This document shows positions 1,886 through 27,692 of a DNA stretch of 39,305 bases, in pieces. The notes under the pieces are model-generated. The model searched no databases. It was not told where the DNA came from and saw only the letters and a program-made list of their open reading frames with translations. Source of the stretch: Eledone cirrhosa (lineage: Eukaryota); NCBI GenBank assembly GCA_964016885.1, contig CAXHJY010001239.1, positions 1-39,305 on the forward strand, given 5' to 3'. Positions within the stretch are counted from its first letter, which is position 1. The number at the start of each line of letters is the position of its first letter. Position numbers and translations under genes: made by a program.

Positions 1886-1941
1886 CTTCATACGGATTGG
1901 ACACTACCGTAAACTCTTGGTAGATTTATCTACATAATTTT

Positions 1942-2059
1942 GCTCCTATTTTCACGGAAATATTCGTATTTTTGTACTGTATGTGTGTATTAATTTTATA
2001 TTTATGTATAAACATATATATATGTATGATTTTGTAAACCCATATACATTTAGTTGAGC
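1942..2059 (+). ncRNA. Bulged hairpin 2 of family A (5'UTR)
   Basis: GCTC-CTA ... TAG-TT-GAGC. Starts 5 nt after the pLTR end at 1936. Confidence 0.5.
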
Positions 2060-2088
2060 TCTTTCAATTGTCCATCATCCATATCACA

Positions 2089-4515
2089 ATGGAAAAACAA
2101 TATTTAGGAACCTCCTTAAAAAACATACCAATACCTTCTAAGGACGACTTCTTACTCCTTATGATTCAGAAAACTAATAATTTTATCAGAAGGGTTAGAT
2201 GGAGAGCCTACCACTTCGATAGAAAATCTAAACAAGCAGATCGGAAATATATGTATGATTTCAACACTTACAAGAATCCACCACACAACTTTTTACTTGA
2301 AGACTTCGAGAAAGACCTTTTTAATTTAATTAAACACCTCAAATTTAAAAAGTATAAATCCGTCTTTCAAAAGGACCTTGATTCTACCCTATTGGACCTA
2401 AAAAAGTCTAAAAAAATCCATGTCCACTCGGACAAAACTGGTAACTTGTATCATATGGATATTGAACATTATAATGAGTTCATATATAAAGAACTCAGAA
2501 AAAATTATAAAAAATCTAATAATGTGTCACTCACCAACATCAACAACAAAACACACAACATAGTAAAAAAACTAAATATTTAAGATAGAACTGAACCTTT
2601 GGCATTGAGAAGTCCACACTTCAACCTGAAAGATCACAAATCTAACTTTAACTCTAATCCTTCTATTAGACTTATATGTCCCTCCAAATCAGATATTGGA
2701 ATAATTAGCAAAAAAATTTTAGATAGAGTCATCCCACAAATAAGAAAATATGTTATTTTACCACTCTGGGAAAACACCTCCCAGGTAATTAATTGGTTTA
2801 AAAATATTAGGTGTAAATCTTCTGCTTCTTTCCTACAGTTTGATATAGATAATTACTATTCTTCTATATCACCCATACTCCTGAACAAAGCATTAATATT
2901 TGCTAAAAATAGATCTAATTTAACTTCGGATGACATTAACATTATTACACATGCTAGACAAACACTTATTGAATTTCAGAATGAATACTGGACCAGAAAC
3001 ACTTATAGTAATCTTTTTGATATTACTATGGGTTCAAGCGATTCTGCCCAAATTACTGATCTTGTGGGCCTCTTTCTCCTTTTCAACATAAATGCCTCTT
3101 TTCCCCACCTCAAAGGTGGTTTATATCGTGATGACTGTCTTCTTCTTTCTAACAACCTTAGCCTTTCAGAAATCGAAAAAAACAAAAAGCATATTAGAAC
3201 TTTCCTTAAAGACTATTATAATCTTAATATTACTTTTGAAAAAACAAGTAAAGTAGTAAATTTCCTAGATATAACTTTAGATTTAGCTACGGGTATATAC
3301 CAACCTTACCATAAACCTAACCAAAACTTACATTACATACACTCACAATCTAATCACCCTAAATCTATCCTTAAAAACCTTGCATATAATATATCACTTA
3401 GAATTTCTAACCTTTCTTCTAACCAAGATGTATTTGATAAAAATGCGACCTTTTATAATGAAGCTCTAGATAGAAGTGGCCACAAAAATAGATTAGAGTA
3501 TATACCTTCTACTAAAAATACTGAAAGCATACAGCATAATATTACCAACAAACACCAAATGAAAAGTACACACCTAAATGCCACCCACAGTATACCCCAA
3601 AATACTAAATCTTCTAATATAAAGTATAGTAACCCTCAAAAAACTACTCATCATACGACTATAATAAATATTAATAATAAAACTCCTAATAAAAAAGATA
3701 AAACACCTAAATCTACAAATATAACTAAAAATAGTTGTGGTGAGATCATTAACATAAATCATGATACAACATATAAAAATAATAAAAATAATAAACAACA
3801 TAGAAACCGTAATAGACGAGTTACTTGGTATAATGCTCCTTTTAATTTACAAGTTAAGGATAATATTGCTAAAAAATTTTTTTATATCCTTGAGAAAAAC
3901 TTCCCGCCAAACCACAAATACCATCAAATCTTAAATAGGTCTACAGTTAAATTCTCATACTCTACAACAAATAACATAAAACAAAATATAAGTGCATATA
4001 ATGCATATAAATGTAAGAAAACCATAAGTATACCACCAGTACATCAAATTAACAATAATATCTCCTCAAATACAGAATTAACGAAAGGATGTAACTGTAG
4101 AAACAAAACAAACTGCCTATTAAAAGGGAATTGTCTTGTTAACAACATAGTCTATAAATGTAATGTTAAAACTAAAGATTCTATTTGCTCATATATAGGA
4201 GCTACCTCTAACAATTTTAAGACAAGGTATAATACCCACAAACATAGCTTTAAAAATGCCGCACTGGCTAATACAACATCTCTAGCAGAAAAAATCAATA
4301 GTTATAAAAATAAAAATATAAAATATGATTTGACCTGGAGTGTGCTCAAAAGAGCCACCCCTTATCAAAATAATAGAAAGGAATGTAGATTGTGTTCCCA
4401 AGAACTATTTGAAATAATGAAGTCTAGGGATATCCTATTAAATAAAAGACAGGAATTAATTATATCGTGTAATCATAAACTAAAAAAAACATTTAAATAT
4501 TATAAACCTAATTAA
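2089..4515 (+). pseudogene. PLE RT + GIY-YIG polyprotein interrupted by one in-frame TAA (2581-2583)
   Basis: ORFs 2068-2583 and 2599-4515 are in frame and colinear with the element B protein (KLNI*DRTEP vs KLGIEKKTEP). Motifs SDKT, QFDI, TMG, YRDD, FLD, CNCR..C..C, IVY..YIG, CRLC, LLNKRQE. Confidence 0.92.
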
Positions 4516-5859
4516 TAACATTATTCTAGAATTTAATTTAATTTAAATGTTAGTTAACCTATAAATTTAATTTAATTAATATTTTATTACAGATGAGAAA
4601 ATATTATGTAACCATAAATTTTGAAAAACCTTTAAATATTACTAATATATATTCAGTAATTTAATTTATAGATTAATTTTAACTTATTTTAACCTTTTAT
4701 TATAATTTTTTAATTTAGTTTAACCTTTTATTATAATTTTTTTTATTATAATTCTTTTACAGATAAAATATAACAAAATAATATCATGTATCCTATGACG
4801 GAGAAAGAATTTTTAGTATTATAGACCTAATTAATATACATTTTGGAAATATATTTATTATTTGGTTTTAGTTTTAATCAACCTAAAACTTTAATTTTAA
4901 TTTGCTTAAAATTAGTATCCTTGTACAGACGAATTGCAGAATGTCATGTAATCATAGAATGGGAGGTGTTTTGGATATATACCTAGTTAATATATTCTGT
5001 GCAATTTTTTGAAAAAGATATGTATATCTATATGTATATGTATATGTGTGTGTTGTATGTGTATCTGTATGTATATTTATGTGACTATATGTGTATGTAT
5101 GTGTATATATATGTATATATATATATATATATGTGTATGTATATGTATATATATGTGTATGTGTATGTATATGTATATGTATGCGTATTAATTTTGATTT
5201 TTATTTGCATATAATTATATTATGCTATTGATGAAATACAATATCTGCTTTATTTATTGTATACCTAATTAACATATACTAATTAACGTATACTATTGAA
5301 ATAAATATATAATTTTTAATTTAGTTAACATATAATTTATATGCTACTACCGATGTAATATTTTATTTTATTTTTATTTGGGTTTCTTTTCCCTATTACT
5401 AAATTCATCTCCTAATATTGATACCATAACGTTATTAACTTTAATTTAGTTATAATGTAATTAATAATCTACTACTGTTTGACTTCATAATTCTGCTTCA
5501 AATATTATAAACCTAACTAATTTACACCTTGGAAATCAATATGTTGACTATCTTTGGTTTAGTTAACATATGATTAATGGTATACTTTTTTATTTTGTGA
5601 TACATAGATTTCGTATTTCCTAGTACTGAAAATATGTAAGAACATACATTGAATTAAGATATGGAAAATATTATATGTTTCTTGAAACATATATTTACTT
5701 TGATCCCCTTCTCCAAACCCCCCCTTTCCCCCATACTATTATCATCTGTTTTTGTAAGCGTATTTGTATGAATATATGTGTAGATGGGTGTCTATATAGG
5801 TTTTTGTATTTATTTCTAAATATAAAAATACATATATGAGCATGTAAATATGAATGTAA

Positions 5860-25329: not shown

Positions 25330-25679
25330 AAAAAAACTTACATCGGCATGAACTCCAACAACTTTAAGGCCCGTTGGTATGCCCATACCCACTCCTTCAG
25401 CAGACCGGACAAATCAAACCAGACAACACCCGCCTCCTACGTTTGGGACCTCAAAAGGAACTCCCCCCCCCCTTCAGGCTTAAACGGAAAATACTCCAGA
25501 AAGCGCGCTCTTACAACGGAGGACACAAGGGCTGCGACCTTTGTATTTCAGAGAGCTACGAAATTTTATTCGCCAAGGGCACGCTACTGAACAAACTCTC
25601 TGAACACTGCCCGAACTGCATGCACAAAAACTTTGCAACATTCAAACATTTTAAGCCAGTGTTAAAACCCGATGGCTAA
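25330..25679 (+). pseudogene. GIY-YIG C-terminal fragment, PLE family C (frameshift in the C run near 25470)
   Basis: TYIG..FKARW..H..SF, CDLC..E, LLNK, C.HK, split over two frames. Confidence 0.85.
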
Positions 25680-26619
25680 AAACGACCTCCTCCTATTGGC
25701 CCCTATACCTCCTCCCCACCCTACCCCACCCCTCCTCAACCTGAAATACGGCCACTATGGTTATGTGAGTACCTCTTACGTATCTACATTTTCTGCCTGT
25801 AGAGGTGTTTTTATGTGCCTGCGTATATGCGTATATTTATTGAGTACTTATTTATTTGTATGTGTATATATTTGTGTGTATGTGTGTATATGTATATATG
25901 TGTATATATGTGTGTATATATATGTATATATGTGTGTATATGTGTGGGTGTGTGTGTGTGTGTGTGTGTGTGTGTGTGTGTGCGTATATGTATGTATATG
26001 TATGTATGTATGTGTGTGTATATGTATATATATATATGTATATATATGTATATATATATATATATATATATATATATACGTATATATATGTATATATATA
26101 TATATATATGTATATATATATGTATGTATATGTATATATATGTATATATATATATGTATATATGTGTGTGTGAGTGTATATATATGTGTGTGTGTGCATG
26201 TGTATATATATATATACATATACATATATATGTGTGTGTATGTGTGTAGGCGTGTATATATATATGTATATATATATATATATATATATATATATATATA
26301 TATATGTATATATATATATATATGTATATATATATATATATGTATATATGTATATGTATGTATGTATGTATGTGTGTATGTATGTGTGTGTATATATATG
26401 TATATATATATGTGTATATGTATAGATGTATGTATGTATGTGTGTATGTATGTGTGTGTATATATATAGAGAGAGAGATGTGTGTACGTATACGTGTGTG
26501 TGTGTGTGTGTGTATGTGTGTGTGTGTATATATATATATATATATATATATATATATATATACATATATATATATATATATGTATATATATGTATATATA
26601 TATATATATATATATATAT

Positions 26620-27030
26620 TGTCATGTCAGTTAACTCTTCCTCACACTTCCACTCACTCACTGTTTCTCCTCTTCTCACTTCACCCCGTTCGCGACGAAG
26701 TCATTTTCTCTCTCTCACATTTGAATTCGCTGCTGAAAGGTCTTTTTTCTAAGCGCTCATATATTCACCTAGCTTATGCTAACAGAATAACTATGAAGCT
26801 TGTCTCCTTCTTTCTACGATTAGCTATCCTTGTTGTTATCTTGTGTCACTCGCTTTACGCGTTTTAATTGTCCTAATAACTTAATTTAGTTATTATTGCA
26901 CCGACGTGAGGTATATGATTTTTAATGCAATGAAATATCTATGATCGTCGGCAAATCACTGATGAGGGACTTATTTTATTACATGTTATCCATGTGCAAC
27001 CAGCAGTATTCTTCTCCCCATTTTTTCACA
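26620..27030. mobile_element. Possible solo LTR
   Basis: 411-bp unique block with TGT...ACA termini embedded in (TA)n. No coding or PBS evidence. Confidence 0.3.
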
Positions 27031-27522
27031 TATATATATATATATATATATATATATATATATATATATATATATATATATATGTATATGTATGCATGTA
27101 TATGTGTATATATGTATTTGTATGTATGTGTATGTGTATGTATATATATATATATATATGAATATATGTATGAATGGTGTATCTCTCTCTCTATATATAT
27201 GTATATATATGTATGTATGGTGTATGTGTGTGTATATATATATGTTCTGTTTTGTTCTCGTTCAATTTTTCCTTATATATGTGTATGTGTGTGAGTGTGT
27301 GTGTGTGTGTGTGTGTGTGTATATATGTATATATGTGTGTGTGTATGTGTGTGTGTATATATATATATATATTTTTTTTTTCATATATATATATATGTAT
27401 ATATATATATATATGTATGTATGTATATATATATACACACGTATATATGTGTGTATGTGTGTGTGTGTGTGTATATGTATGTATGTATATATATATATAT
27501 ATATATATATATATATATATAT

Positions 27523-27692
27523 ATAATATAAGATCAAAAGATGGTTAAAGGAGTTCCATATATTTTATTATGCGCATTTCAAAAACAAACATCATCAAGC
27601 AATAATATTTGTGTTTTCATCAGATAAAACAGGAGAACATGATATGAAGGCTAAAAAACACTTGTGGATAGTGCAGTTTTAAATCAACATAT
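27523..27692 (-). mobile_element. Short family B pLTR fragment with HHR (27563-27629)
   Basis: Matches 11624-11793 with a few substitutions. Same terminal junction. Confidence 0.9.

Follow-up and report, generated by a model that had tools for sequence, protein, structure and literature searches.

What sets the 3′ ends of a Penelope-like element (PLE)? The question is raised by 39,305 nucleotides of the Eledone cirrhosa genome (assembly GCA_964016885.1, contig CAXHJY010001239.1, positions 1-39,305, forward strand), referred to here as the window. Six Hydra-type PLE families, A, B, D, E, F and G, are inserted there in (TA)n, and a sequence-only reading had proposed that their ends lie a fixed, short distance before a bulged hairpin.

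The elements and their assignment

Arms and repeats in the window were mapped with masked self-BLAST. The insertions display a partial tandem (pLTR), a 5′-truncated inverted copy and a tail at one end only, the layout of EN+ PLEs given in the Fig. 2 legend of PMC8557442 and in PMC3846280. Insertion in (TA)n, a trait of the Hydra clade, is seen in the window and in genomic copies. The order within an element is hammerhead-like core, U/A-rich spacer, hairpin 1, tail, spacer, hairpin 2 and ORF.

The family B ORF (15432-17834, plus strand) is uninterrupted and encodes 800 amino acids from its ATG; that of family A (2089-4515, plus strand) carries a stop at 2581-2583 in this copy. Both predict a reverse transcriptase (RT), a CxCx5C linker as well as a GIY-YIG-like domain at the C terminus, with motifs identified by eye in the translations. 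A single ORF in which RT precedes a C-terminal GIY-YIG is the Hydra arrangement. Naiad was considered and rejected, since its endonuclease is N-terminal. The window's proteins gave no RT or GIY-YIG match in Pfam, and a PDB sequence search returned nothing relevant. The Arg-Trp pair of an RWK-type motif, the third letter being R, K or T, is invariant in A, B, E, F and G and present in D; it occurs instead of GxKF/Y, as in the Hydra clade. The change of DKG to DKT follows the same distribution, invariant in five families and present in D. In A and B the linker, with CxxC and CxH around conserved E and N residues, is accompanied by an absence of CCHH; the third cysteine of CxCx5C is missing in one D copy examined. 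An Rfam scan of the window produced microsatellite noise and one sub-threshold hammerhead, with no family matching the hairpin. The latter is a type I hammerhead-like motif in G (29257-29301, plus strand) scoring 26.9 bits on RF00163 against a gathering score of 34; A, B, E and F show only core-like letters. On their ORF, motif, layout and target features the families are assigned as Hydra-type Penelope-like retrotransposons.

A twin hairpin and the distance to each junction

Two copies of one bulged stem motif (RCTC...NN-GAGY) precede the ORF in each family. Hairpin 1 of family A (1804-1884, plus strand) is a bulged 4-bp stem with a long inner arm; hairpin 2 (1942-2059, plus strand) has the same stem and a long inner arm, with pair 1 G-C rather than A-U, and a z-score of -3.2. 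The family B counterparts are at 15270-15294, in the upstream pLTR copy, and 15360-15377, both on the plus strand. Pair 1 of G hairpin 1 is an A-C mismatch in the window copy and G-C in most other copies. Single hairpins fold weakly, most z-scores falling between -0.5 and -2.3, and the other strand folds about as well.

Among metagenome relatives, 21 of 35 loci have the motif exactly twice at no more than 200 nt from the start of the ORF, compared with 1 of 426 ORF windows. The reverse-strand control, with single matches in 13 of 35, has little force, the stem being nearly palindromic. Although no pairing was required in the search, 40 of 43 motifs have a Watson-Crick pair 5 (23 C-G, 17 U-A) and 30 of 43 a Watson-Crick pair 6. 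Shuffling gives a mean of 20.4 for pair 5 with none of 10,000 trials reaching 40, a test that ignores relatedness and in which much of the signal is hairpin 1 against hairpin 2. The counts were made on anchored motifs, as a MAFFT alignment did not line the hairpins up by stem. So compared, the hairpin pair covaries.

Element ends fall at two places, a short site before hairpin 1 and a long site before hairpin 2. The 3′ end of an A copy (7552-8051, plus strand) comprises hairpin 1 (7919-7999) and the tail, then enters (TA)n at the long site; its last position corresponds to 1936, 5 nt from the stem at 1942. The A long-end site in the read-through copy is 1933-1936 (plus strand), 5-8 nt before hairpin 2. 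The B tail (19165-19248, plus strand) runs from hairpin 1 (19165-19189) to a long end at 19246-19248; the site is 15351-15353, 6-8 nt before hairpin 2, and 19248 is equivalent to 15353, 6 nt from 15360. An inverted B arm (11624-15033, minus strand) and a short B arm (27523-27692, minus strand) have short ends at 11624 and 27523, equivalent to 19160 and 4 nt from 19165. The A and B ends of the first reading (8051, 19248, 11624 and 27523), with their equivalent positions and distances, are exact. In independent sequencing contigs the depth changes stepwise at 15262 and 15358, and loose TA ends occur at 15265 and 15353/15354, so the B junctions are no assembly artefact.

For D the proposed site (equivalent to 10137, 5 nt from 10143) is right and the coordinates of the ends, given as 9138, 21177 and 24764, are corrected to 9137, 21175 and 24765. 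The first belongs to the minus arm of a head-to-head insertion (9137-10217, unstranded) with hairpin 1 at 10143-10166 and the long end at 10214-10217; the others terminate diverged D arms (21175-21583, minus strand; 24365-24765, plus strand). The E head-to-head insertion (22782-23291, unstranded) has its long end at 22782 on the minus arm, hairpin 1 at 22876-22837 (minus strand) and a short end at 23291, one position from the approximate 23292 of the earlier reading, at the site assigned there (equivalent to 22881, 4 nt). A diverged A-like 3′ end termed A2 (22521-22743, plus strand), formerly called a loose fit at about 22743, stops at the A short-end site, used by 16 of 30 genomic A matches. 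F hairpin 1 (28352-28370) and tail reach a long end at 28416-28417 (28352-28417, plus strand), and G hairpin 1 (29353-29374) with its tail to the long end occupies 29353-29448 (plus strand).

Among genomic copies the commonest distances to hairpin 1 and hairpin 2 are 4-7 and 5-8 nt in A, and 4-7 and 6-8 nt in B, with a minor class at 5-6. The two intervals are 5-8 and 3-6 nt in D, 4-6 and 3-6 nt in E, and 6-7 and 4-7 nt in G; F has short ends at 5-6 and long ends at 7-9 nt. These come from an automatic tally that allowed a mismatch in the TA run, merged identical A matches and left 4-18 matches per family unresolved. With TA microhomology taken into account, a distance of 6 nt suits all main junction classes but the F long ends. 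Microhomology blurs each junction by 1-4 nt, and 6 is the value common to the intervals, not a measured start. The 4-6 nt originally quoted is the lower edge of the microhomology interval; a more suitable figure is about 6 nt, with latitude from 5 to 9. On four metagenome contigs with a TA junction the intervals are 2-6, 5-7, 3-7 and 2-6; a fifth ends at 3 or more. Extra (CT)n is found at 7 of 17 E long ends; it may be stutter or later microsatellite growth and is left out of the evidence.

Copies that read through contain the second hairpin expected past the long ends in D, E and G, and a reduced form of it in F. Between the long end and a Hydra-type ORF it is seen in 7 of 100 D copies and 9 of 100 E copies among the matches listed, and also in G, where the exact read-through pattern taken from the window copy, a variant, gave 0 matches. 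Hairpin 2 is missing from long-end copies and must therefore act in a precursor. Some D and F copies hold hairpin 2 plus 30-45 nt before jumping back into the pLTR, so templates extend beyond hairpin 2.

Paired ends and how they may form

Do the two sites account for ends across the genome? The B anchor has 9,949 genomic matches. Among 98 of the first 100 places listed, the short site accounts for 53 ends and the long site for 43; 2 read through, and none end elsewhere. A gives 16 short, 12 long, one read-through and one internal duplication in 30 matches. D, scored by eye on 100 ends among the matches listed, gives 51 short and 49 that pass hairpin 1, and G 55 and 43 respectively (n=98). The two sharp junction peaks that were predicted are present in A, B, D and G. 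The F and E lists yield no short:long ratio, as a terminal W in their search patterns hides most long copies. Head-to-head pairs combine one short and one long end in 34 of 36 cases in B (p 1e-8 against a coin flip; the other two are short+short or long+long), in all 26 in D (within 300 bp, by eye) and in all 11 in A (by eye). The placing of the ends exceeds chance expectation.

We consider it probable, at roughly 0.7 and judging from genomic copies, that these ends reflect twin internal target-primed initiation set by RNA hairpins, with ends about 6 nt before the two conserved bulged stems. A transcript of a tandem copy would run past hairpin 2; a search of RNA runs gave no usable reads from the stretch. 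The element protein, perhaps as a dimer, would bind both hairpins as RNA docking sites and its endonuclease would nick both strands of (TA)n. Each 3′-OH would then pair with the short U/A stretch immediately 5′ of a hairpin to prime cDNA, so that the hairpin used would stay uncopied. Joining of the two cDNAs at their far ends would give an inverted pair with a one-sided tail. Such a ruler would have play, with local TA pairing able to shift the start.

Could the hairpins be bystanders, for example translation or packaging signals, with junctions simply at the best TA-like letters near an RNA end? The spacers are U/A-rich, and F uses an extra TA-like site: 27 of 100 ends among the matches listed (by eye) stop there, about 12-17 nt before hairpin 1. 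In F, then, a neighbouring upstream TA-like site can draw the junction away. Several F observations speak against the hairpin reading: the partner arms of these shifted ends keep the full spacer; of 15 F long ends, 10 lie 7-9 nt from the reduced hairpin; and TA also closes a few copies past hairpin 2. Against bystanders, none of the 98 B ends and none of 28 A ends use the many other TA-like sites of the AT-rich tails, the long-end spacers of B and F match TA poorly, and the offset stays constant while the tail varies among families from 71 to 138 nt. We regard this explanation as highly improbable.

The pairing of ends bears on a scheme in which RNA cleavage or 3′-end formation, directed by the hairpins and lying about 6 nt upstream of them, provides the ordinary RNA 3′ ends at which RT starts; in its favour, a hammerhead-like core lies nearby (in G, and in File S2 of PMC8557442). 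With its RNA cut at the short site, however, an insertion would have no template for its long arm, and pairs are nearly always short+long; the D and F copies that continue past hairpin 2 also demand longer templates. It is very unlikely.

One long and one short end per insertion would be automatic if the long end were the sole start and the first cDNA folded back and copied itself until hairpin 1, in the cDNA, stopped synthesis about 6 nt short. Self-priming has been proposed for inverted PLE junctions (PMC3846280) and a stalled polymerase could also stutter. Yet the same motif recurs at the same offset at the long end, where it is absent from the copy and so cannot be a stop; there are short-end copies that stand alone, and direct tandems with a short end (L381/L382); and Poseidon has two start sites in vitro (PMC11167929). 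We judge fold-back improbable.

Family G offers a further clue. The last 7-10 template letters stand 2-5 times over at 16 of 55 short ends, compared with 3 of 43 longer arms (p 0.009, Fisher), and in copy L429 the partner arm carries one unit. Realignment would need the spacer U-run, which is absent from a short-end DNA copy. The reiterated units suggest stutter, and so initiation, at G short ends; the need for spacer letters 3′ of the junction also counts against RNA cleavage. The same units point to a restarting polymerase and not to a cut. This matters for a reading in which the motif acts as DNA: the GIY-YIG endonuclease would bind the hairpin in an intermediate, single- or double-stranded, and cut about 6 nt away before ends are joined to (TA)n. 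The stems do fold on both strands, Craig et al. 2021 attribute the tail to endonuclease-mediated resolution (PMC8557442), earlier work cited in PMC11167929 found that the Penelope endonuclease required tail sequence, and some GIY-YIG enzymes cut single-stranded DNA at specific repeats (PMC11893778). Junctions nevertheless slide to TA-like letters, and both tail ends of Poseidon are RT start sites in vitro (PMC11167929). A DNA signal is unlikely; twin internal initiation on RNA is preferred.

Comparison with known systems

The families share with the Hydra clade, as described in PMC8557442, the C-terminal GIY-YIG, RW and DKT motifs, CxCx5C linker and (TA)n targets, together with partial tandems, an inverted 5′-truncated copy and a one-sided tail. 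They differ in tails of 71-138 nt as opposed to 30-40 bp, and in A and B units of about 6.1 and 3.9 kb where the usual length is below 3 kb. The description covers hammerheads and the 30-40 bp tail and no conserved hairpin pair, the words 'hairpin' and 'stem-loop' turning up 0 times in its main text, and at least one copy of the motif is visible by eye in five of the six consensi of its File S7.

PLE tails and internal initiation, the latter in Poseidon, are already published. Frangieh et al. 2024 (PMC11167929) report that two internal RT start sites bound the tail of Poseidon PAc in vitro, that AT-rich DNA is cut on both strands, that RNA 3′ of the start is needed and that a dimer is predicted. 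This bears out the internal initiation that the sequence-only reading had attributed to a Poseidon-clade PLE. The PAc start is, however, inside an AC-rich stem-loop within the ORF, without target homology (PMC11167929), rather than 5′ of a stem. In the present families the ends lie in U/A-rich spacers 5′ of two separate stems, in a 5′ leader upstream of the ATG, and have U/A microhomology to the target. The genomic ends would nonetheless fit a PAc-like pair of internal starts at the tail ends. A search of the open-access literature found no paper on the motif or offset.

The sole in vitro study of PLE initiation identified two start sites without a conserved cis signal. A motif kept across divergent relatives, a set offset and strict short+long pairing make PLE end formation experimentally testable and provide a rule for calling the true ends of Hydra-type elements. 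They also suggest a small signal for internal starts in RNA-templated DNA writing; if the two-part signal considered below is real, a portable motif of about 25 nt would be enough to have DNA synthesis begin at a selected position inside any RNA, and a Hydra-clade PLE enzyme would occasionally add repeats as telomerase does.

In L1 twin priming both target strands prime cDNA on one RNA, giving an inverted arm. The second priming site varies there, and no sequence is repeated between the arms, whereas in these PLEs both sites are fixed and the arms overlap.

PLEs are the closest retroelement relatives of telomerase. It is conceivable, with somewhat less than an even chance, that a two-part RNA signal, present throughout the Hydra clade, programs twin priming, one RNP placing two RT sites on two bulged hairpins, each about 6 nt from a telomerase-like primer-alignment patch and one for each target strand. 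In telomerase and DRT10, as treated in PMC12632851, a related RT works on a short template fixed by a stem, and the nascent cDNA realigns to add repeats, which is also what the G stutter suggests. The stem there is 5′ of the template and sets the stop (PMC12632851); in the PLEs it is 3′ of the template, where it would define the start, and repeats are seen occasionally.

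Elements of the window and the hairpin motif

The window, an entire contig, is 22% GC and mostly (TA)n, in a genome of 3.0 Gb, and masked self-comparison reveals direct and inverted repeats nested within it. The ORFs carry RW and DKT motifs and the targets are (TA)n, properties among those ascribed to Hydra clade Penelope-like elements (PLEs) in PMC8557442. Judged by sequence, the elements match described features of that clade. Families D, E, F and G likewise run into Hydra-type ORFs in read-through copies elsewhere in the genome.

The inverted arms at 1-1436 and 11626-15033 match their partners at 99.7-99.8% identity, which marks these insertions as recent; they are clustered within one another's (TA)n flanks. 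The 3′ UTRs of A (4515-7550, about 3.5 kb, with microsatellites inside) and B (17834-19160, 1.3 kb, with repeats inside) far exceed those of published Hydra elements. At 25319-25867 and 37317-37863, microsatellite encloses two almost identical pieces of a Hydra-type ORF's endonuclease domain; they probably belong to family F, since identical sequence adjoins an F end at another genomic locus, L093. A further (TA)n-ended element (20860-21011) contains a hammerhead-like core at about 20893-20917 and a small motif-like stem at about 20939-20950.

Scanning for RCTC/GAGY stems of 4 bp whose 3′ side carries a 2-nt bulge returned 15 rows; four of them, which fall inside ORFs or on the wrong strand, look like chance matches. 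The motif occurs 5′ of the ORF, and where there are two copies we term them hairpins 1 and 2. The scan places the hairpins of A at 1804-1884 and 1942-2059, those of B at 15270-15294 and 15360-15377, and single hairpins of D at 10143-10166, E at 22876-22837 (minus strand) and F at 28352-28370. The G stem is at 29353-29374. Within this genome every hairpin-2 copy has G-C at pair 1, and five hairpin-1 copies have A-U there.

The arrangement extends to relatives. Of the 37 loci from a metagenome scan, we retained the 35 that include the ORF start. Exactly two motifs lie within 200 nt 5′ of the ORF in 21 of the 35 (three of the 21 being duplicates or near duplicates) and at least one in 25; among ORF windows, 1 of 426 has two. 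The relatives' consensus order is a U/A-rich spacer, GCUC, the inner stem, a U(U/C/A) bulge, GAGC and usually ACU. By eye, five of six published Hydra consensi, from coral, sea cucumber, copepod and octopus, have the motif. For covariation, 32 non-redundant loci were used and pairing was not demanded; they hold 46 3′ signatures, with a 5′ partner for 43. Pairs 5 and 6 are Watson-Crick in 40/43 and 30/43 stems, each exceeding all of 10,000 shuffles that ignore relatedness. Pair 1 is nearly invariant across the 43 stems and its covariation is not significant.

Two classes of element end

Copies stop before hairpin 1 (short ends) or before hairpin 2 (long ends), or read through both. The B anchor has 9,949 genome matches; 98 places fetched from the first 100 listed comprise 53 short, 43 long and two read-through ends, with none elsewhere. 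The first 30 of 1,131 A matches give 16 short, 12 long, one read-through and one internal duplication. By eye, 51 of 100 listed D ends (34,295 matches) are short and 49 lie beyond hairpin 1. In 30 loci 17/18 D long ends fall at the window's site or a few letters away. For G (136 matches, 98 arms read) the division is 55 short and 43 beyond hairpin 1. Both B steps recur in contigs of independent sequencing runs. Two such runs (X3 and X4) also have, at 15252, loose ends of a third group, which enter a different AT-rich stretch and then TA and probably come from a subfamily related to B whose spacer differs.

The classes are paired. Head-to-head B copies combine a short and a long end in 34/36 cases (p 1e-8), and by eye the same holds for 26/26 D pairs no more than 300 bp apart and 11/11 A pairs. 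Both exceptional B pairs have near-identical flanks on either arm and may be later duplications. That pairs arise from a single start with fold-back, stopped at hairpin 1, we consider unlikely.

The sequence-only reading predicted a hairpin 2 beyond the long ends of D to G. With search patterns that required only non-TA sequence 3′ of the long end, it was found in D (7 of 100 listed matches run on into a stem whose inner part has four pairs), E (9 of 100 listed) and G (locus L176 and three further loci). Most F matches run on into a reduced form whose 4-bp stem has pair 3 flipped and whose loop is 5 nt long. In D and F, some copies extend 30-45 nt beyond hairpin 2 and then either return to the pLTR, the repeat holding hairpin 1, or finish in TA (for example L462:1500-1980, minus).

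Distance, reiteration and possible editing at the ends

All junctions named in the sequence-only reading are present to within 2 nt. They are not scattered, and the hairpin-linked pattern is a real feature. With (TA)n as target, a junction can be placed only to an interval, not to a point. The commonest intervals, in nt to the stem for short and long ends respectively, are 4-7 and 5-8 for A, 4-7 (31/48 resolved) and 6-8 (27/41) or 5-6 (11/41) for B, 5-8 and 3-6 (12/13) for D, 4-6 and 3-6 for E, 5-6 and 7-9 (10/15) for F, and 6-7 and 4-7 (30/35) for G. The element end is visible in five relative contigs, at 2-6 (L253), 5-7 (L256), 3-7 (L264), 2-6 (L266) and at least 3 (L259). Where D long ends adjoin non-TA sequence, the break lies by eye 4 to 7 nt 5′ of the stem, implying about 1 nt of jitter. 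A distance of 6 nt falls inside every commonest class of the six families but the F long ends (7-9 nt). Among 100 listed F ends, 27 are shifted upstream to a TA-like site, about 12-17 nt away; the spacer is complete in the partner arm of two such pairs. These shifted ends count against a rigid ruler. An endonuclease measuring along DNA is a doubtful source of the offset, and TA matching alone is hardly credible.

The G spacer 5′ of hairpin 1 repeats a U-run found nine letters upstream. Two to five unit copies, with variable T counts, occur in 16/55 G short ends as against 3/43 longer arms, and three or more in 6/55 against 0/43. Six G insertions (L381/L382, L386, L413, L428, L429 and L456) join a reiterated short arm to an unreiterated partner. 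Later replication slippage is hard to invoke, because the DNA copy at a short end is without the second U-run. We infer that new cDNA realigned on the spacer while the reverse transcriptase (RT) was held at the hairpin, leaving a footprint of initiation. RNA cleavage as the origin of the ends is very improbable. In 7/17 E long ends (L348-L377) additional (CT)n of as many as 10 units separates the element from (TA)n, with many more cases in a second E set; this is either RT stutter or the birth of a compound microsatellite.

A tail-to-tail pair of A ends (38774-38828 and 38947-39268) has A-to-G changes on the same (+) strand in both arms relative to the intact copy: all 5 changes are of this kind in the sense arm, and the antisense arm has 49 against 3 T-to-C. 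From its sequence the pair resembles the product of a fold-back RNA hyperedited by ADAR and then reverse transcribed into the genome. No such bias was seen in copies of D or of A2, a diverged A-like 3′ end.

Mechanism and known systems

We favour twin internal initiation set by the hairpins, with a probability of about 0.7. The layout, two end classes, their pairing, the offset, covariation and stutter we count as established. The remaining steps we infer: the transcript would extend through hairpin 2, the element protein would bind each hairpin, both strands of (TA)n would be nicked, priming would occur about 6 nt 5′ of each stem, within the U/A spacer, and the two cDNAs would be joined.

In the literature searched, which includes few of the subscription papers, we saw neither the hairpin pair nor the offset described for PLEs, nor any programmed twin priming in them. 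The tail, inverted copy and (TA)n preference are already described for PLEs in PMC8557442 and PMC3846280. For the Poseidon element PAc, PMC11167929 reports internal initiation in vitro at two sites that bound the tail, located in an AC-rich stem-loop.
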